5,879 nt of DNA from Escherichia coli (GTDB lineage: Bacteria; Pseudomonadota; Gammaproteobacteria; Enterobacterales; Enterobacteriaceae), in assembly GCF_003334815.1 (NCBI RefSeq), contig NZ_QOWO01000072.1; one strand, given 5' to 3'. The notes beneath the pieces were generated by a model, which saw only the letters and a list, made by a program, of their open reading frames with translations, ran no database searches and was not told where the DNA came from. The position numbers and the translations under genes are program-made. The number at the start of each line of letters is the position of its first letter. The first letter of the stretch is position 1. Positions 78 through 5,879 of the stretch are shown here, in pieces.

Positions 78-248
78 GGTTTGGCGTTTCCCTGCCAATA
101 TTTGATAGCCAACCCAGAGGATATAAACGCTAATACCTGCACTTAGAAGAGATAACATATCTTGGCCTAATTGACTTTGAAGTGGTTTGGTCATCTCTTC
201 GATTTTACTAACAACTTCGCTATTAAACTTTTCAAAGAAACCAGACAT
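51..248 (-). CDS. 65-aa membrane ORF resembling the N-terminal segment of VirB6/TrbL-family proteins (possibly a truncated gene)
   Basis: ATG at 248 preceded by AGGTGA, 4 nt after the stop of the upstream lipoprotein gene. MSGFF... then one hydrophobic helix (LSLLSAGISVYILWVGYQIL) followed by AGKR, the usual start of VirB6-type proteins, but it stops at TAA 51-53 where canonical proteins continue for about 250 aa. Confidence 0.4.
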   Translation of the reverse strand: MSGFFEKFNSEVVSKIEEMTKPLQSQLGQDMLSLLSAGISVYILWVGYQILAGKRQTGVPWAFLR

Positions 249-252
249 GTTA

Positions 253-516
253 TCACCTGTTCAATCCATGTTGCTTATCATATTCAGCTGACTCAGCCTT
301 AAGTATTTCAAGCATAGGCCCATAGGTTCTACCAATAATTCCGGCAACTTTTTTAACATTTTGACAATTAACAGAGTCTTCCCCTGACTTTTTACACTCC
401 TTATATTTCTCCGTTGCTTCTTTGGGATGATTTAGCCACCAATCTGATGATTTTGTATCTTCACCACATGCGGAAAGAATAAAAATAGATATCAAGAGTG
501 TACAAATTTTTTTCAT
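253..516 (-). CDS. Small secreted lipoprotein (87 aa); position immediately upstream of a VirB6/TrbL-like ORF suggests a TrbK/entry-exclusion-like role
   Basis: N-terminal signal peptide MKKICTLLISIFILSAC with lipobox L-S-A-C; GAGGA Shine-Dalgarno 7 nt upstream of the ATG at 516; stop TGA at 253-255. Confidence 0.6.
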   Translation of the reverse strand: MKKICTLLISIFILSACGEDTKSSDWWLNHPKEATEKYKECKKSGEDSVNCQNVKKVAGIIGRTYGPMLEILKAESAEYDKQHGLNR

Positions 517-536
517 CTTTGATTCCTCGTATGGAC

Positions 537-578
537 ATTACAATTGCTGATGCAATCAGCAATTGTAATTTTTGTCAA
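537..578 (-). promoter_or_regulatory. Perfect palindrome (15-bp arms, 3-bp spacer) plus adjacent minus-strand TTGACA; candidate operator/promoter for the lipoprotein operon
   Basis: ATTACAATTGCTGAT-gca-ATCAGCAATTGTAAT at 537-569, 21 nt upstream of the ATG at 516. Minus-strand hexamer TTGACA at 578..573 immediately upstream. No clean -10 hexamer identified. Confidence 0.4.
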
Positions 579-617
579 CTAAAAAAAACACCTATTGCAT
601 TATGCTATTTTTTGCAA

Positions 618-902
618 TTAATCCGCTTCAAATCCAAAACGAATCTCTTTTATGTTCAAAAGCAATCTCAATAAGATCATCGGTCTTAACGATGAAGCTG
701 AAGCACAACTTAATTTAGCTCTTGCATTAAATAACTGCCCCTGAACTGTTCCCGGTGTTGTATTTCTAAAATAAGCTATTTCATCAATAGTAAATCCTAT
801 GCTGTATAAAATGGTCACGCTCTTTTCCGCATCGATTAATCCTTCATCGTCGTAAAAGATTTGATGAAGTTGAGAAATGCGTATAGCATCATGCTTAGTC
901 AT
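618..902 (-). CDS. Small helix-turn-helix DNA-binding protein (sigma-70 region-4 / KorA-like HTH)
   Basis: 94-aa ORF; AGAGG Shine-Dalgarno 6 nt upstream of the ATG at 902. Segment FTIDEIAYFRNTTPGTVQGQLFNARAKL fits the T-x-G-T-V HTH pattern. Lies 76 nt downstream of repA on the same strand. Confidence 0.5.
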   Translation of the reverse strand: MTKHDAIRISQLHQIFYDDEGLIDAEKSVTILYSIGFTIDEIAYFRNTTPGTVQGQLFNARAKLSCASASSLRPMILLRLLLNIKEIRFGFEAD

Positions 903-978
903 AATAACCTCTAGCCAGGTTGTTGTGATTAGCGGTTTGTCAGAGTTGCAACCTCTGGCAAATCGCGCCGATTAAATA

Positions 979-1728
979 TCAATTTTTTATAATCTTTGAT
1001 TGCTCATCTTTTTGAAACCAGAATTCAAGACGAACGACTTTTTTGCCTCTTTTTAATGGCTTCCACTGGATTATCCAATTATCTTTTTCGGTCAACTCTT
1101 TTACGGCAGGTTCTATCACCCTTTCTCTGAGTAATCCAAAGGTTTTTTTATAACTTTCAGGAGATTCCATTGCGTGATGAAAATCATCCAGCGATATAGA
1201 TAACCATCCGTTATTGTCTTTGTGGGTATTCATTTGCTCGAATAATTCAAGCAACCGCCATGAGTGAACAGAGCGCAGTCCGCAAGCCTGAGATAGCTGG
1301 TATTTAGTGAAATTTTCTTCCAGTTCGCATAGATAGGGGGTGACCTGTGGTGTGAAGCTCAAAACAACGTGCGCTTCACCTTCATTGTATTTATAAGCAC
1401 CTAACCATCTGATTTTCCAGACATCAACATCTGTTTCGCTTACTTCGTTTATTCTGAAGCTAATGTAGCGGTTAAAAAAATTGTCAGCAGCGATTTTTAA
1501 TTGTGAATACGCTTGTTTTAAAGGCATTCCAAATGTATTGGCGTATTCTTCAGCCGTGATTTTAATCGGGGTGTACTGTCCGCCCATTTTGGCTATTGCA
1601 GCAAAAATGATGCGTTTTTCAGCCAGTGACAGGCTTTGCGCTGCTCTCGTAATGGCATTGCTCATCACGATATTTTTCCCGCGCAGGTTCAAGGTCATGG
1701 TAATGGATTCAGTTTTTTTCCCTTTCAT
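979..1728 (-). CDS. repA: Rep_3-family iteron-binding replication initiator RepA
   Basis: Architecture matches pSC101/R6K-type initiators as remembered: NAITRAAQSLSLAEKRIIFAAIA (winged-helix 1), WKIRWLGAYKY...PYLCEL, SISLDDFHHAM...LEFWF. Preferred start is ATG 1728 (MKGKK, preceded by AGGCGGAGAG); the track ORF extends to 1782 and internal ATGs at 1698 and 1665 are alternatives. Stop TGA 979-981. Cognate iterons lie 130 bp upstream. Confidence 0.85.
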   Translation of the reverse strand: MKGKKTESITMTLNLRGKNIVMSNAITRAAQSLSLAEKRIIFAAIAKMGGQYTPIKITAEEYANTFGMPLKQAYSQLKIAADNFFNRYISFRINEVSETDVDVWKIRWLGAYKYNEGEAHVVLSFTPQVTPYLCELEENFTKYQLSQACGLRSVHSWRLLELFEQMNTHKDNNGWLSISLDDFHHAMESPESYKKTFGLLRERVIEPAVKELTEKDNWIIQWKPLKRGKKVVRLEFWFQKDEQSKIIKN

Positions 1729-1761
1729 CTCTCCGCCTAAATAGGTCAACTGGCACTTGGA

Positions 1762-1845
1762 AAAGTAACAGGTATCGGGCAACTGTAACGAAGATAAACG
1801 ATGTTATCGCACAAGTAAAGTAACATTGCTTGTTGCTGTTACTTT
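1762..1845 (-). promoter_or_regulatory. repA promoter/operator region with inverted iteron half-sites (candidate autoregulatory operator)
   Basis: Iteron core GTTACTTT occurs as AAAGTAAC at 1762-1769 and 1817-1824 and as GTTACTTT at 1838-1845. The pair 1817-1824 / 1838-1845 forms an inverted repeat with 13-bp spacer between the iterons and the repA start. Confidence 0.45.
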
Positions 1846-1849
1846 TGCC

Positions 1850-1858
1850 TGTGGATAT
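1850..1858. promoter_or_regulatory. DnaA box-like site (8/9 match)
   Basis: TGTGGATAT, reverse complement ATATCCACA versus consensus TTATCCACA; directly abuts the iteron array. Confidence 0.35.
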
Positions 1859-1860
1859 TG

Positions 1861-1944
1861 CCCGAAAAAAGTTACTTTTAACCCGAAAAAAGTTACTTTT
1901 AACCCGAAAAAAGTTACTTTTAACCCGAAAAAAGTTACTTTTAA
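1861..1944. repeat. Four tandem perfect 21-bp iterons (CCCGAAAAAAGTTACTTTTAA)
   Basis: Unit starts at 1861, 1882, 1903 and 1924; all four copies identical, contiguous, no spacers; located upstream of a Rep_3 initiator gene. Confidence 0.9.
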
Positions 1945-2040
1945 CGCTGTAACTTGATGATTCAAAAGAATTTCTAGCGACTAAAAAGGTTTTAAAAAAA
2001 AAGATAAAAAGGATTTAAAAAGGAATTTACCCCCAAAATC
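1945..2040. other. AT-rich, A-tract-phased region of the origin (candidate DNA unwinding/bending element)
   Basis: Strongly AT-rich by inspection; AAAAAGG recurs at 1983-1989, 2006-2012 and 2017-2023; flanked by iterons on one side and a perfect DnaA box on the other. Confidence 0.4.
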
Positions 2041-2049
2041 TGTGGATAA
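2041..2049. promoter_or_regulatory. DnaA box (perfect 9-mer)
   Basis: TGTGGATAA is the reverse complement of TTATCCACA; sits at the edge of the AT-rich origin region. Confidence 0.5.
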
Positions 2050-2156
2050 CTCTGCTTAAACCAAGAGGACAGATCACGTTACGTTAAGACAACAAACCTA
2101 ATAAACGACGCGCTCATTTTTTAACCGCTACGCGTAAGTGCTCAAATCAATACCTG

Positions 2157-2222
2157 CTCTCTTCCGCTTCCTCGCCCACTCGCTCACTAACGTTCGGTCG
2201 CTGGGGCTGCGGCGAGCGGTGC
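2157..2222. other. Segment resembling the ColE1/pBR322 primosome assembly (n'-type pas/ssi) region
   Basis: CTCTTCCGCTTCCTCGCCCACTCGCTCACTAACGTTCGGTCGCTGGGGCTGCGGCGAGCGGT is recognisably similar, from memory, to the pBR322 stretch CTCTTCCGCTTCCTCGCTCACTGACTCGCTGCGCTCGGTCGTTCGGCTGCGGCGAGCGGT. Lies about 110 bp from the oriV DnaA box in a GC-rich ORF-poor island. Confidence 0.3.
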
Positions 2223-2589
2223 CACCTCCCGCATGTTGTCGGTTATTCCGTTGCTGTACTGTTCGGAAATTCGTTCTGTGAGCCATCCAGAACACCAGAA
2301 CTCGATTTTCTGGTCCCGGTAATGGTATCCCACGTCTTAGCCCTTAAAACGCGCTCAGAAACTCTCTGAGGCGCTAAAATGCCAACAGATGCCCGTCAGG
2401 GCATGGAAGGTGCGAAAAACGCTTACAGAGGGTTTCAGGAGGCCAAGCGCGCCGATACCCCTAACCAGGGGCTTTCAGGTCGCTAAGAACCGCGTCAGCC
2501 CCCTGCAAAGCAAAAATTGCACGAAACAGGCAGCCACTCGGTTGGCAGGTGGTCGTAGACCGTCGATGTTGCAGCGATGATTGTATTAA

Positions 2590-2934
2590 TCATCTAATGC
2601 TATGGTTGGTGACTTCTTTTTCCAGAGCCTTATTAACAAAAGCATTCAACGATAAATCTTCTTCCATCGCCATTTCTGCTACCCGACGATGCAGTTCTGG
2701 ATCAAGCCTGACGTTAAACACGCCTTTAAACGGGATATCAGGTTCCTTTCCATCCTCCACACAAGACTGTAAATACAGATCAACCGATGTTTTAAACTCC
2801 TGTTCCAGTTCAGCTAATGTAGAAGCCTCATAAGTTACCAGGTCCCGAATAAACGCCAGTTTTCCATACAGGACATTATTTTCAAAATCGGGTTCAACTG
2901 TACCTAAATATCCTTTATATTTTAAATGTTTCAT
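2590..2934 (-). CDS. hicB: HicB-family antitoxin (N-terminal HicB fold plus C-terminal ribbon-helix-helix DNA-binding domain)
   Basis: 114 aa; C-terminal FNVRLDPELHRRVAEMAMEEDLSLNAFVNKALEKEV is a typical RHH segment of HicB antitoxins. Start ATG 2934 overlaps the hicA stop (ATGA at 2931-2934); stop TGA 2590-2592. Confidence 0.8.
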   Translation of the reverse strand: MKHLKYKGYLGTVEPDFENNVLYGKLAFIRDLVTYEASTLAELEQEFKTSVDLYLQSCVEDGKEPDIPFKGVFNVRLDPELHRRVAEMAMEEDLSLNAFVNKALEKEVTNHSIR

Positions 2935-3179
2935 AATAATCCGGCCTCTTTCAGATTCTGTTTAATCGCTTTCAGCGTACCACCTTTAATATAACTTTCC
3001 GGATGTGGGCGATGCATTAATATGGTGTGGTTGATATCAGCATTGAAAAACCGCACTCTTGACCCCTGCATTTCTTTTTTGACATATCCCAAAGAGGAAA
3101 ACAAAACGACCAGTTCATCCCATTCAAACGTTTTTTTGCTGTTTAAAAACTTCGCCAGTAGTTTATCTGTTTTTCCCAT
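2931..3179 (-). CDS. hicA: HicA-family toxin (mRNA interferase)
   Basis: 82 aa; GSRVRFFNADINHTILMHRPHPESYIKGGTLKAIKQNLKEAGLL resembles the E. coli HicA core (GSNH...PRHP...LRKAILKQLGL, remembered). GGGGAG Shine-Dalgarno 3 nt upstream of the ATG at 3179; toxin-first order typical of hicAB. Confidence 0.75.
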   Translation of the reverse strand: MGKTDKLLAKFLNSKKTFEWDELVVLFSSLGYVKKEMQGSRVRFFNADINHTILMHRPHPESYIKGGTLKAIKQNLKEAGLL

Positions 3180-3193
3180 ACGCTCCCCTTGTT

Positions 3194-3229
3194 TGTAACT
3201 AATTATAGTTACAGTGTTGTTTTTGTCAA
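3194..3229 (-). promoter_or_regulatory. Consensus sigma70 promoter for hicAB with overlapping palindromic operator
   Basis: Minus strand: -35 TTGACA (3229..3224), 16-bp spacer, -10 TATAAT (3207..3202), about 23 nt upstream of the hicA ATG. Palindrome TGTAACT-aattat-AGTTACA (3194-3213) overlaps the -10. Confidence 0.55.
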
Positions 3230-3320
3230 ACGTGCCCTCAATGGAACATTTGAGCAGAAACTAAAGCTTGGAGACTCCCAAAATTAGAGAGGAATTACTT
3301 AAAGGCTGCAAAGAACCAAT

Positions 3321-3368
3321 GCAGGATAGACAATCCGATGTCAAATGGTACCATTCGATATCGGATTG
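3321..3368 (-). other. Candidate oriT: near-perfect 38-bp palindrome followed on the minus strand by a TATCCTG|C nick-like motif
   Basis: CAATCCGAT-gtca-AATGGTACCATT-cgat-ATCGGATTG at 3331-3368. On the minus strand the motif TATCCTGC (3328..3321) follows 2 nt after the repeat and fits the MOB_P-type nick consensus YATCCTG|Y. Lies in the divergent intergenic region next to a MobC-like gene. Confidence 0.35.
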
Positions 3369-3419
3369 TCCAAAAACAGGGTTTTTGCCTGTGCCTGCCG
3401 CAGGCTCTATGGAGTGAAG

Positions 3420-3923
3420 ATGAAACAGATAAAATTCAGACTTAGTGGTGATGAGTTAAAACTTGCAGAACATAACGCGATTTCAAGTGGATTTTCCAGT
3501 ATCAATACATTTGCCAGACATAATGTGCTTAACATTGAAACTAAGCCTGTTAATATCCCAGTTAATAATGAACCAGCAAAGCTGGTATCAGTGCGCCTTT
3601 ACCCTCATGAAATAGAACTTGTTAAACGTAATGCTGCCCTTCACGGCATGAGCATGAGCAGAGAAATTGCTATTCGTGTGCGTCAGTCTTTGTTAAAGAA
3701 TGAAGTCTGTCTTTACCCTGATGAAGTTAAGGAACTTAAAAAACTATCAACTGCTGTAGATCGTGTTGGTCGCAACATTCATTTTATCATAAAAGGTGAA
3801 AGATTCTGCACGGTTAACGATCCAGATTTCAGAAAAGACGTTATTGAAGTGATTGAACTGTGTAAGCAAATTGATTCAAAACTTGAAACGTTAACCAAGA
3901 GTGTTGTTAACAGATTTGGTTAA
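3420..3923 (+). CDS. MobC-like relaxosome accessory protein (tandem ribbon-helix-helix segments)
   Basis: 167 aa from ATG 3420, with GGAG 7 nt upstream; the track ORF start at 3345 lies inside the palindrome and is rejected. Two RHH-like segments (IKFRLSGDELKLAEHNAISSGF; KLVSVRLYPHEIELVKRNAALHGMSMSREIAIRV) and C-terminal LKKLSTAVDRVGRNIHFIIKG resembling the MobC L..L...R.G.N motif. Stop TAA 3921-3923. Confidence 0.45.
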   Translation: MKQIKFRLSGDELKLAEHNAISSGFSSINTFARHNVLNIETKPVNIPVNNEPAKLVSVRLYPHEIELVKRNAALHGMSMSREIAIRVRQSLLKNEVCLYPDEVKELKKLSTAVDRVGRNIHFIIKGERFCTVNDPDFRKDVIEVIELCKQIDSKLETLTKSVVNRFG

Positions 3924-3929
3924 AATCAA

Positions 3930-3948
3930 GGCCATCAAATAGATGGCC
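3930..3948 (-). terminator. Hairpin between convergent genes; likely intrinsic terminator for the minus-strand VirB5-like operon
   Basis: GGCCATC-aaata-GATGGCC (7-bp stem, 5-nt loop). On the minus strand it is followed by TTGATTTTA (U-rich); on the plus strand the downstream tract is not U-rich. Confidence 0.4.
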
Positions 3949-3955
3949 CTAGCTG

Positions 3956-4258
3956 TTATCTCATCGTAAATCGCATTACGATTAATAACAGAAGTAAAAT
4001 ACAAAACAGCTTCAACGTAAAAAGGAGTCTTTCTTTTATACCACCGCTGGGAACAAACCTCTTTTCAATTCTATCAGTGATAAATTGCAATGTGCCATAA
4101 TACATAAAAGCATTAACCAGCTTTAACGTAAGCTCCATACTTAAAACAATAACTATTATTGGTAGAGATATTAACAGTGGCGGCGGTGTAGAACCGGTAC
4201 TATTCAATCTAGACCAATGATTATCTACCCATTCTTTTAGCTTATTTAGCTTTATCAT
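3956..4258 (-). CDS. Small integral membrane protein (100 aa, two hydrophobic helices); entry-exclusion-like by position after the VirB5-like gene
   Basis: ATG at 4258 lies 1 nt after the VirB5-like stop (TGAtATG); the track ORF's longer N-terminus overlaps the upstream gene. Hydrophobic stretches PLLISLPIIVIVLSMELTL and LLFTLKLFCILLLLLIVMRF. No family recognised. Confidence 0.45.
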   Translation of the reverse strand: MIKLNKLKEWVDNHWSRLNSTGSTPPPLLISLPIIVIVLSMELTLKLVNAFMYYGTLQFITDRIEKRFVPSGGIKERLLFTLKLFCILLLLLIVMRFTMR

Positions 4259-4259
4259 A

Positions 4260-4973
4260 TCATTCGAAACTCGGTATTTTGGCATTTTTCTGACGTAAAC
4301 GATACTCTGCATACTTTTGTTCTTTCAACATTTCCGCATCAGCCCTGTTTTTACTATCCCATACATCATACTGCATTTTAATTGCCTGTATTTTTAACGA
4401 CTGAGCCTGTAATGCGTTAGCTAAATCCTGGGATTCCTTCATATCCTTTGAAGACTCAATTCGGCTACTTAAACTCTGAATCTGAGACATTGCACTTGAT
4501 AGCTGCTTATTTATCTCATTTCCCTGTTCAATGCTGGCGGCCGTTGAAACTATTCTGGCCTTACAAAGGTTATCAGAACTTTCAATGCCTGTATTACACA
4601 TATCAAACGCTCCATACTTACTGAACAGATTTTTAGCCTGGCTGCTTAATGCACCTTCGGGATTACTGGTAAAATCAGAAATATAACTGTTCCCCTGCTT
4701 ATAAATGTTTGCCAACTCTGATTGCAGGTTACTTAGTTCATTTGTGAATGCCGCAATATTCCTTATACCTGTTGCCGTGGCTAACTGGTCTTTATATGCC
4801 TGAATCTGACTTTGATAATGCCGCGCTGTTTCAGACCATTGTTTGAGTCGTTCTGTCCATCTTGTGGCTTCAATGGCCCATTCCGGACTGGCATCAATAG
4901 CAACCGGAATACCTGCGACAGAACCAAATGAAAATAAGCACAAAAGTACTGAAAAAATTAGTTTTTTGTTCAT
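4260..4973 (-). CDS. VirB5/TrbJ-family type IV secretion minor pilus protein
   Basis: 237 aa; signal peptide MNKKLIFSVLLCLFSFGSVAG, then GIPVAID and a Gln-rich coiled-coil stretch (QSQIQAYKDQLATATGIR) as in VirB5/TrbJ proteins. Strong GAGGAG Shine-Dalgarno; start overlaps the upstream gene's stop (ATGA at 4970-4973). Confidence 0.7.
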   Translation of the reverse strand: MNKKLIFSVLLCLFSFGSVAGIPVAIDASPEWAIEATRWTERLKQWSETARHYQSQIQAYKDQLATATGIRNIAAFTNELSNLQSELANIYKQGNSYISDFTSNPEGALSSQAKNLFSKYGAFDMCNTGIESSDNLCKARIVSTAASIEQGNEINKQLSSAMSQIQSLSSRIESSKDMKESQDLANALQAQSLKIQAIKMQYDVWDSKNRADAEMLKEQKYAEYRLRQKNAKIPSFE

Positions 4974-5710
4974 GCTGAACTCCTCGCACGTGCTTTTTCC
5001 AGGGATGCTCGTCTTCTTGCTTCCATTCCCAATGCGCCTGTTGAAGCCCGTTTCTGCTCCACTTTTTCACCTGCCCATTCGGCGGCTGTTTGCGTTCCCC
5101 GTTTCATTTGGTTTCTCGTTTTCTCTACGGCCATCCCAGCAGCCCCAATCCCTAAAAGAGCCATTCCCTGAAGAGTACCTTCGACACCTGCACCAGCAAG
5201 CTGCTGCGCGAAACTCGATGATTTCCAGACAAAGACAGCAATCAGAACTCCAATTACAAATGCCATTGCGCCCATTGTTAAAATATTTGTTGAGTTAGCA
5301 TCTCTCGATATCTGACTAAGCATATCAGTTTGAAACTCAGTACCAATTTTGACGAGAACTCCTGCAAAAATAACAGTAAATACACTAGAAAATAATATAC
5401 CAAGCCAGTTATTAAACATTACTCTGGTGAATCCAAACATATGACAACCGATAAATATCGGAGCTACAAGAATAGCTAACTGCATTGTTACATCGGCAAG
5501 CATGTAAATAACAGCCGCTACAGACATAATCAGGATGCTTCCTCCCCAAACCAACATTGAACCGATCCCACCCTCAACTGACACATATTTGGATTGATCC
5601 ATAGCATAAACTTTGTCTGCCAAAAGCTGAGTTGTACTCCACATGGTATCTAGCGTTGCCCATACAGGTTTACCAAGGAACCCATCCTTCATAGATTTAA
5701 TAGCATCCAT
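4970..5710 (-). CDS. VirB6/TrbL-family polytopic inner-membrane protein, lacking the canonical N-terminal segment (possibly N-terminally truncated)
   Basis: 246 aa with 4-5 hydrophobic helices and a charged C-terminal tail. APIFIGCHMFGFTRVMFNNWLGILF matches the conserved VirB6 P-x-F-I...TR..F..W block (remembered from Brucella/Agrobacterium VirB6). The frame is open upstream to TGA 5861-5863 with no ATG/GTG/TTG before ATG 5710, and the ribosome-binding site is weak. Confidence 0.7.
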   Translation of the reverse strand: MDAIKSMKDGFLGKPVWATLDTMWSTTQLLADKVYAMDQSKYVSVEGGIGSMLVWGGSILIMSVAAVIYMLADVTMQLAILVAPIFIGCHMFGFTRVMFNNWLGILFSSVFTVIFAGVLVKIGTEFQTDMLSQISRDANSTNILTMGAMAFVIGVLIAVFVWKSSSFAQQLAGAGVEGTLQGMALLGIGAAGMAVEKTRNQMKRGTQTAAEWAGEKVEQKRASTGALGMEARRRASLEKARARSSA

Positions 5711-5802
5711 TGCTGCCGTCAGATAGCCATCAGCATTGCTTACGAATGTTAAAATAATGGCAAATTTTGATAGGTCCCAAACGAGATCTTGTAATGGGGT
5801 TT

Positions 5803-5839
5803 GGGGCTCCGTGGGAATTTCTGCGATAACACCCGCTAA
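5803..5839. repeat. Right copy of the imperfect 37-bp inverted repeat (partner at 41-77); an inverted, degenerate copy of the 3' end of the 51..248 ORF
   Basis: Plus 5758-5829 translates to WQILIGPKRDLVMGFGAPWEFLR-stop, versus YQILAGKRQTGVPWAFLR-stop at the C-terminus of the 51..248 ORF (encoded on the opposite strand). Nucleotide identity is 34/37 in the core. Confidence 0.7.
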
Positions 5840-5849
5840 GCGATTTCTC

Positions 5850-5879
5850 CCTGACGGAAATCACTTGTTTTCCGTCAGG
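5850..5879. repeat. Perfect hairpin/inverted repeat at the right window edge (11-bp stem, 8-nt loop)
   Basis: CCTGACGGAAA-tcacttgt-TTTCCGTCAGG; the stem contains the in-frame TGA (5861-5863) that closes the upstream extension of the VirB6-like reading frame. Downstream context is beyond the window. Confidence 0.5.

Follow-up and report, generated by a model that had tools for sequence, protein, structure and literature searches.

The window analyzed here, a 5,879-nt stretch of Escherichia coli DNA, corresponds to nearly the whole of a small plasmid: over positions 78-5804 it is 100% identical to LR792480.1, a Salmonella plasmid of 5,718 bp, and 98.7% identical to NZ_CP122591.1, an E. coli plasmid of 5,720 bp. 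Between its replication origin (oriV) and the hicB gene lies a GC-rich island (2105-2585), and the alignments described below indicate that it is a discrete, portable, non-coding module (2132-2579). The left part of the module is a well-supported homologue of the primosome assembly site (PAS) of ColE1, and its right part is a second conserved element, here called the core. With moderate confidence, we read the island as a cis-acting, non-coding single-strand-initiation (ssi) cassette for the host primosome, located in the replication/establishment region of the plasmid. The locus is arranged as follows.

979-1782, minus strand: replication initiator gene (rep) of the Rep_3 family (Pfam Rep3_N, 2.8e-32; Rep3_C, 2.8e-15; RepM/RepE-like in NCBIfam).
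1861-1944, no strand assigned: oriV, four 21-bp iterons (CCCGAAAAAAGTTACTTTTAA) followed by an A+T-rich stretch (GC 31%).
2041-2049, no strand assigned: perfect DnaA box TGTGGATAA (other strand, TTATCCACA) at the edge of the origin, by direct reading of the sequence.
2132-2235, minus strand: homologue of the ColE1 ssiA or n'-type PAS (BLAST, nhmmer), with the invariant left boundary GCGTAAGTGCTC and an active strand that, by homology, would read ...CCGCTCGCCGCAGCCCCAGCGACCGAACGTTAGTGAGCGAGTGGGCGAGGAAGCGGAAGAG.
2236-2337, no strand assigned: variable spacer (alignment and per-column variability; BLAST breaks at 2266/2338), of which a stretch of ~56 nt (about 2267-2337) is missing from the 1.5-kb plasmids.
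2338-2388, no strand assigned: block A, a conserved lead-in (TAGCCCTTAAAACGCGCTCAGA...) also found in IncX4 replicons.
2389-2577, plus strand (tentative, from G-T wobble asymmetry only): the core, a separable non-coding unit of ~190 nt with sharp ends, from ATGCCC... to ...GATGTTGCAGCGA (homologue alignments).
2590-3179, minus strand: hicB and hicA, directly beyond the island.

The sequence-only reading of this locus had described the island as richer in GC than its surroundings and as lacking a convincing open reading frame (ORF), and both descriptions hold. Its GC content is 54.9%, compared to 39.0% in the rest of the window, and it is the top-ranked 481-nt window by GC, the best non-overlapping runner-up reaching 48.4%. 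The ORF list contains three short ORFs there, all rich in Arg.

2128-2295, minus strand: short Arg-rich ORF.
2379-2486, plus strand: short Arg-rich ORF, for which PGAP annotates a hypothetical protein of 35 aa in the near-identical NZ_CP122591.1.
2389-2580, plus strand: short Arg-rich ORF.

No NCBIfam model matched any of the three. Furthermore, the variable alignment columns of 13 homologues were spread without periodicity over the three codon positions (8/11/8 and 23/27/24), and the frame at 2379-2486 is broken by stops or frameshifts at at least five different positions among 27 homologues. By these three results, a small protein gene is excluded.

Copies of the module with 77 to 88% identity are present in hundreds of small plasmids of enterobacteria whose replication proteins are unrelated. 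In a plasmid search with the island, more than 5,000 records matched the ColE1-like piece and 36 covered at least 80% of the island, and the boundaries at window positions 2132 and 2579 are sharp and common to backbones that are otherwise unrelated. Carriers are plasmids of 1.4 to 1.6 kb of the pG-EA11/pSF301-1 type, which "only encode repA" (PMC3486847), RepL plasmids of 2.4 to 4.2 kb, bacteriocin plasmids of 2.6 to 2.8 kb, Rep_3 plasmids of 5.25 kb, and one Klebsiella plasmid of 100 kb with an internal copy. In most of the small plasmids the module runs ~65 nt further than in the window and includes two GC-rich hairpins. Two carriers seemed to have no rep gene, but rotation of the circular records revealed genes for a winged helix-turn-helix (wHTH) RepA and a RepL-like protein spanning the record start. 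All carriers have a rep gene of their own, and therefore, the module is an accessory element and not a replicon. L015 (2052 bp, RepL-like; L numbers are our handles for individual records) and L016 (2810 bp, wHTH RepA) are both typed Col(MG828) by MOB-suite, and the module is all that they share. Judging from these two sequences, the Col(MG828) typing marker probably sits in the module and not in the rep gene, which calls for caution in practice: the marker may report the module rather than the replicon.

The compositional jump had been taken as a sign of separate acquisition. The module is indeed common to unrelated replicons and, in that sense, mobile. However, a single continuous alignment at ~78% identity, from rep to 2510 of the window, covers the sister Rep_3 plasmids L013 and L008, and a recent acquisition of the island is weakly supported. 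In addition, matching segments stand at the equivalent place beside rep in IncX1 replicons (2040-2227) and in IncX4 replicons (the PAS and 2338-2436). Since Rep_3, IncX1, and IncX4 relatives hold parts of the module in the same place, its link to this type of replicon must be old, and the high GC content therefore belongs to the element itself and is not a mark of recent import.

The sequence-only reading had noted that the left part of the island resembles the PAS region of pBR322/ColE1. BLAST aligns 2156-2220 of the window with 1308-1370 of ColE1 (NC_001371; 53 of 65 positions, 82%, E 2e-11), and with an nhmmer profile built from 13 homologues the match grows to ~110 nt (ColE1 1404-1295, E 4e-18). 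The matching ColE1 segment is found ~100 nt past the nick site of oriT (gtatactgg/cttaac) and ~90 to 100 nt before the RNA-DNA switch; from its position in the literature we take it to be ssiA. The ssi of ColE1-family plasmids is described there, with a length of 82 nt and a distance of about 60 nt to oriV (PMC5935869), and ssiA is described as the n' pas that is exposed by leading-strand extension (PMC3167613). A "phiX174 primosome assembly site" of 66 bp is annotated in pHUSEC2011-3, a related plasmid of 1.5 kb, and has also been reported for pColZ (PMC6668396). The PAS is thus a known kind of element, already annotated in close relatives, and its novelty is modest. Its most prominent feature is a hairpin.

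2164-2219, minus strand: PAS hairpin with the outer stem CCGCT/AGCGG, conserved internal loops, and the inner stem GCCCC.../...GGGC, supported by compensatory changes.

In the 32 distinct PAS homologues that we gathered, the blocks TTCCGCTTCCTCG and TGCGGCGAGCGG are nearly invariant, and the sequence between them varies with pairing kept. The stems were compared class by class, since the MAFFT alignment did not bring the arms of the inner stem into register between sequence classes. The outer stem is replaced by GCGCCT/AGGCGC in the 29.8-kb plasmid NZ_LR890201.1 (L042). The inner stem is GCCCC/GGGC in the class of the window, GTCGAT/ATCGAC in pKL1-like and some RepL plasmids, and GGCAAGA/TCTTGTC, with an extra GCCGC/GCGGC hairpin, in Pantoea/Klebsiella plasmids; in all, there are four different self-complementary versions of the stems. 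This pattern reads as the signature of a structured single strand that is kept by compensatory change. With sequence similarity, position, and a compensated hairpin in agreement, homology to the ColE1/pMB1 ssiA (n'-pas) region is well supported and fairly secure.

The right part of the island behaves as a unit of its own. Window 2335-2579 alone matches 751 plasmid records, and the per-column variability shows 2389-2530, a stretch of ~140 nt, to be nearly invariant. L042 has three copies of the unit ~2385-2577 with identical ends, one beyond the 3' end of repA and two flanking ccdAB, and its PAS is elsewhere. The copies that bracket ccdAB (21516-21693 and 22372-22549) are direct and ~180 nt long, and the 8-nt tandem repeat CATATAAG follows one of them. 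Toxin-antitoxin cassettes lie directly beside the element in several replicons, namely, hicAB in the window, ccdAB in Pantoea, and relE/parE in IncX4. Four paired structures were recognized in the core.

2389-2404, plus strand: hairpin H1, ATGCCC-GTCA-GGGCAT; the stem is invariant, the loop varies (GTCA/GCTA/GCCA), and the hairpin is kept in Pantoea/Klebsiella homologues.
2409-2453, plus strand: stem S2, GGTGCG...CGCGCC (GGYGCG in the family), enclosing GAAAAACGCTTACAGAG; both arms are invariant in 88 sequences.
2458-2471, plus strand: hairpin H2, CCCCT-AACC-AGGGG, with loop-only variation within the family.
2551-2561, plus strand: hairpin H3, GGTC-GTA-GACC, inside the invariant GGTGGTCGTAGACCGTCGATGTT (alignments).

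H1 had already been noticed in the sequence-only reading but was placed wrongly, at 2399-2414. In L042 it is compensated to ATGCCGC-TTTA-GCGGCAT. The arms of S2 are kept in diverged homologues despite a different intervening sequence, and the position of H2 is taken there by other GC hairpins such as CCCGC-GTCA-GCGGG and CGTAG-CGAA-CTACG. A weak stem at 2533-2546 contains many G-T but few A-C pairs, and this asymmetry mildly favors the plus strand as the folding strand of the core. An inner hairpin within S2 (AAACGC/GCGTTT) was rejected, as 64 of the 88 sequences are mispaired at one position. TrfA-type plasmids of Pantoea/Klebsiella and metagenome contigs have a diverged PAS and, ~65 nt on, H1-GGAAGGCGCGAAA..CGCTTACAGA and CTGCWAAGC; the order PAS then core persists in Pantoea/Klebsiella although most of the other sequence has diverged. 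Searches of the literature on pKL1, Col(MG828), and pHUSEC2011-3 gave no description of the core, which appears to be uncharacterized.

The arrangement relative to the origin is also conserved. The order rep (minus), origin, PAS (plus, in the "CTCTTCCGCTTCC" orientation) was found in every small plasmid examined and in the IncX1, IncX4, TrfA-type, and RepA-family replicons. It is common to Rep_3 plasmids (the window, L013, and L008), IncX1 (L017 and L018), IncX4 (L021 and L022), plasmids with wHTH RepA (L003, L011, L016, and L010), RepL plasmids (L009 and L014), the TrfA-type Pantoea plasmid L043, and, for the RepA family, L042. By homology with ColE1, the active PAS strand, 5'-GAGGAAGCGGAAGAG, would be the minus (rep-sense) strand, pointing towards the origin. 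Two further features of the window bear on how this strand may become single-stranded.

3321-3370, minus strand: putative IncX-type transfer origin (oriT) upstream of ddp1, a 42-nt near-perfect palindrome (3329-3370) followed by TATCCTG/C; the nick site is deduced from the sequence.
3420-3923, no strand assigned: ddp1 (TaxA-like; DDP1 family of NCBIfam, 3.8e-69).

TATCCTG/C, a MOBP-like nick motif, stands immediately 3' of the palindrome on the minus strand, and the region 3321-3370 is common to IncX4 conjugative plasmids of ~33 kb (two copies each) and some plasmids of 1.5 to 2.1 kb; by sequence, it is likely an IncX-type oriT. If so, the PAS-active minus strand is predicted to be the transferred strand as well. 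In pKL1-like plasmids, an R64-type oriT (...ACATCCTG/TCCCG) likewise lies on the PAS-active strand, 110 to 170 nt downstream of the PAS. In the 1549-bp pG-EA11 (L003), two oppositely oriented oriTs (832-907 and 1020-1083) are located immediately beside the PAS, one of the R64/IncI1 type (an inverted repeat, a second inverted repeat, and ACATCCTG/TCCCG) on one strand and one of the ColE1 type (...gtatactgg/cttac) on the other.

In our model, the left part of the island (2132-2235) would act as a phiX174-type (n', PriA-dependent) PAS homologous to ColE1 ssiA. Once single-stranded, the minus strand would fold into the imperfect hairpin of ~55 nt closed by CCGCT/AGCGG, with an AAGAG tail on its 3' side. 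Exposure could come about in two ways, either by unwinding that spreads from the A+T-rich origin, opened by Rep and DnaA 100 to 170 nt away, or by entry of the minus strand into a recipient as the strand transferred from the IncX-type oriT. PriA, PriB, and DnaT would then load DnaB/DnaC and primase at the PAS, and a plasmid without a primase of its own would thus be supplied with host-made primers and helicase. DnaB would move 5'->3' on the minus strand, back through oriV towards rep, and primers laid down on the minus strand would be extended away from the origin. The cassette may act once the origin has opened, once the plasmid has entered a recipient by conjugation, or in both situations. 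For the right part (2389-2577), a second and separable structured element, we consider a companion initiation signal for the other strand to be the most likely role, in parallel to ssiA and ssiB of ColE1, which lie on opposite strands.

Several observations weigh against this model. The active strand of the ColE1 site is taken from the AAGCGG motif and from D-loop logic, in which the displaced strand has RNA II sense, and relative to ColE1 the PAS is inverted with respect to the origin. The strand that homology defines as active would accordingly be the leading-strand template for a fork moving from oriV into the island, and although the module begins only 83 nt from the DnaA box at 2041-2049, its PAS would not be on the template of the lagging strand, where a PAS of the ssiA family lies just beyond its origin. 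Hence, the ColE1 scheme of lagging-strand priming behind a departing fork does not transfer directly. What stands of the earlier proposal, that a single-strand initiation signal near an origin or oriT primes lagging- or complementary-strand synthesis, is a PAS homologue beside the origin; the simple lagging-strand version fails on the geometry, which is opposite to that of ColE1. The order of rep, origin, and PAS is broken in L019, a multi-replicon plasmid of 165 kb that is rearranged and has two copies in inverted orientation. The two opposite oriTs of pKL1-like plasmids make the argument from the transferred strand ambiguous, and IncX4 plasmids carry two oriT-like copies, of which the one in L022 is inverted relative to the PAS; this argument is suggestive only. 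As single-stranded DNA, the PAS folds no better than shuffled sequences (z +0.9 and +1.65), and the folding energy of the core is near that of shuffles (z -1.4 and -0.9). The orientation of the core relative to the origin is not fixed either (beyond repA and on both sides of ccdAB in L042), and the core is dispensable in IncX1 and truncated in IncX4 and L013.

A more far-reaching version, which we put forward tentatively and regard as rather doubtful, is that the core is an undescribed host-dependent ssi signal or a new structured RNA and forms, with the n'-pas, a portable cassette that primes both strands. If true, such a cassette would let plasmids without primase and relaxase establish themselves after transfer by different helpers, acting on IncX-, IncI1-type, and ColE1-type oriTs, and it would explain why a non-coding module, and not rep, is the sole sequence common to the two Col(MG828) plasmids. 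Small cryptic or mobilizable plasmids are abundant in Enterobacteriaceae, and their cis-acting requirements are poorly annotated. One non-coding module common to at least five Rep families, with a PAS hairpin kept by covariation and a second conserved element traveling along, offers a concrete target for studying how plasmids without a primase prime DNA after origin opening or conjugative entry.

Among the alternatives, a structured non-coding RNA encoded by the core (2389-2577) or by the whole island, with a role in copy control, in regulation of the neighboring toxin-antitoxin genes, or on a host target, survives best, but we consider it unlikely. The very high conservation without codon periodicity, the short hairpins with loop-only variation and a few compensatory changes, the G-T wobbles tolerated on one strand, and the frequent adjacency of toxin-antitoxin cassettes (in the window, in IncX4, and, with ccdAB, in both L042 and L043) are what such an RNA would lead one to expect. 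However, neither a sigma-70-like promoter nor an intrinsic terminator was found in the island of the window or of two relatives, and the flanks that might supply a promoter differ between plasmids. The covariance-model search proposed with the structured-RNA idea was equally negative: Rfam 15 (including RNAI, CopA, and ctRNAs) gave no hit in the island at E<=1, none at the gathering score in 12 related plasmids, and none at E<=1 in the modules of three plasmids. Folding energies close to shuffles and the few covarying pairs in the alifold consensus of the core point in the same direction. Of the earlier idea of a structured RNA, the short conserved and partly compensated hairpins remain, and they stand against the lack of a promoter, a terminator, an Rfam hit, or an unusual folding energy.

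We give about as little credit to a double-stranded DNA site in the core for host proteins, be it a gyrase-binding or par-like site as in pSC101, a replication enhancer, or a fork barrier. The core is cis-acting and origin-adjacent in many replicons, and its short palindromes (H1, H2, and H3), its repeated motifs (AAAACGC..CAGA and TTTCAGG), and the invariant stretches between the hairpins would suit such a site. On the other hand, H1 and H2 are replaced by other self-complementary sequences, so that pairing is kept rather than a recognition sequence, and neither a scan nor direct reading of the core found an Xer site, a DnaA box, or a Tus Ter match. Inspection of the island by eye for sigma-54, Tus/Ter, and IHF consensus sequences was also negative.

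It is improbable that the island is a functionless remnant of an earlier cointegrate with a plasmid of the ColE1 or pKL1 kind. Such a relic would account for the homology to both kinds of plasmid, for a composition unlike that of the flanks, and for the window copy being without the two distal GC hairpins of most small plasmids, but not for a sharply bounded element in hundreds of minimal plasmids of 1.4 to 6 kb with almost no spare DNA, in the same position and orientation beside the origin in at least five Rep families, with a near-invariant stretch of ~140 nt and compensatory changes in its stems.

Still less probable is a recombination or transfer site, that is, a cer-like Xer site or an oriT with a relaxase nick site. 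Such sites are usual on small plasmids, MOB-suite types some carriers as "mobilizable" although they lack a relaxase, direct copies of the core flank ccdAB in L042, and the left boundary GCGTAAGTGC faintly resembles the MOBQ nick region. Yet the Xer scan, which found ColE1 cer as the positive control at 0 mismatches, gave a best site in the window with 5 mismatches, located outside the island, and no hit in the modules of 12 carriers, and the Xer reading is largely refuted. As for an oriT, the "mobilizable" calls track an oriT repeat of the R64/ColE1 type that lies just outside the module and is missing from the window; within 2105-2585 no arrangement of an inverted repeat and a nick motif was found, the likely oriT is at 3321-3370, and MOB-suite types the plasmid as non-mobilizable.

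Finally, a compact ColE1-like RNA-primed origin, making the module a second replicon, is hardly credible: collinearity with the ColE1 PAS (origin, then ssiA) and carriers at first seemingly without rep spoke for it, but the rep genes recovered across the record starts argue against an autonomous replicon, neither an RNAI/RNAII match nor promoters were found, and nhmmer homology that ends at the PAS, together with Smith-Waterman scores at shuffle level for the core against the ColE1 ori/RNAII region, speaks against the core as a diverged ColE1 ori. Words shared with ColE1 that had been spotted by eye (CCAGGAACCG, CCCCCTG, and AAAAACGC) proved to be at chance level or not collinear.

Some observations on the database records and on the rest of the window may be added. 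In the phage collection, the only matches to the module were three "Escherichia phage" records of 1.4 to 1.9 kb (OR844749.1, OR844798.1, and OX638291.1; core ~91%), which look like mislabeled pKL1-type plasmids. A pattern scan of genome contigs (L023 to L041) found the module in low-coverage contigs, mostly whole plasmid-like contigs of ~1.4 to 1.6 kb, assigned to unrelated taxa (Streptomyces, Mycobacterium, Flagellimonas, Halobacillus, and others) and adding little diversity; this suggests widespread contamination of sequencing projects by tiny E. coli plasmids. L027, binned as a metagenome-assembled genome of Bacteroidetes, has an island identical to that of the window. The type IV secretion genes of the window plasmid (3956-5710 and 51-248) are limited to VirB6-like, VirB5-like, and EexN-like genes, the rest of the apparatus being absent, and the same trio is found on 4.24-kb RepL plasmids at 93 to 96% identity. 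The window ends (1-77 and 5805-5879) are lacking in the 5.72-kb reference plasmids and form a 38-nt inverted repeat of each other (40-77 versus 5840-5803, 92%), with the VirB6-like gene split across the junction, which could be an assembly artifact or a variant junction. At 897-969 (plus strand), the model of the SymR antitoxin RNA matched below its threshold (44.2 bits, gathering score 61, E 4e-6); this segment, which separates the 5' end of a helix-turn-helix regulator gene (618-902, minus strand) from the 3' end of rep, may encode an antisense RNA.

Known systems offer several points of comparison for an ssi cassette. The single-strand origins (sso) of rolling-circle plasmids and of ICEBs1 are, like the module, non-coding, structured, and orientation specific, and they serve the conversion of single-stranded to double-stranded DNA by host enzymes following conjugation or rolling-circle replication (PMC4595007); however, they belong to Gram-positive bacteria, depend on RNA polymerase, and are unrelated in sequence, and the carriers of the module are, as far as known, theta replicons. 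The ssi-like palindrome of pHW126, pIGRK, and pIGMS31 resembles the module in being an accessory ssi next to iteron-like repeats on small plasmids of enterobacteria, and the Rep family differs from that of the window. The palindrome is non-essential for replication, but its loss raises the copy number and causes multimerization. In R1/R100, a G site (a G4-type ssi) is said, after Masai and Arai, to lie downstream of oriR, a few hundred nt from a Rep-dependent origin. Its primer is extended away from the origin, as implied for the window PAS, but the G site is recognized by primase alone and is unrelated in sequence, and there are no IncFII plasmids among the 751 records matching the core.

The closest parallel is ssiA (rriA) of ColE1/pMB1 (pBR322). 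It shares with the window PAS ~105 nt of homologous sequence, including the blocks TTCCGCTTCCTCGC and TGCGGCGAGCGG, and both have an imperfect hairpin, a position within ~100 to 200 nt of the origin, and no plasmid-encoded protein partner. In contrast to ssiA, the window PAS serves a Rep/iteron (theta) replicon instead of an RNA II-primed origin, is reversed in orientation such that the homologous active strand runs towards the origin, and is fused to a conserved element that ColE1 lacks. Indeed, the core has no significant similarity to the ssiB region of ColE1 beyond the 12-mer GCCCGTCAGGGC (E 0.41). The pKL1-like relatives keep a ColE1-type oriT collinear with the PAS, and in its overall layout the module recalls the pair of ssiA and ssiB, two n' sites that flank bom/oriT on opposite strands: in both cases a pair of structured elements, separated by a few hundred nt, stands beside origin and oriT, and we propose that each may serve one strand.

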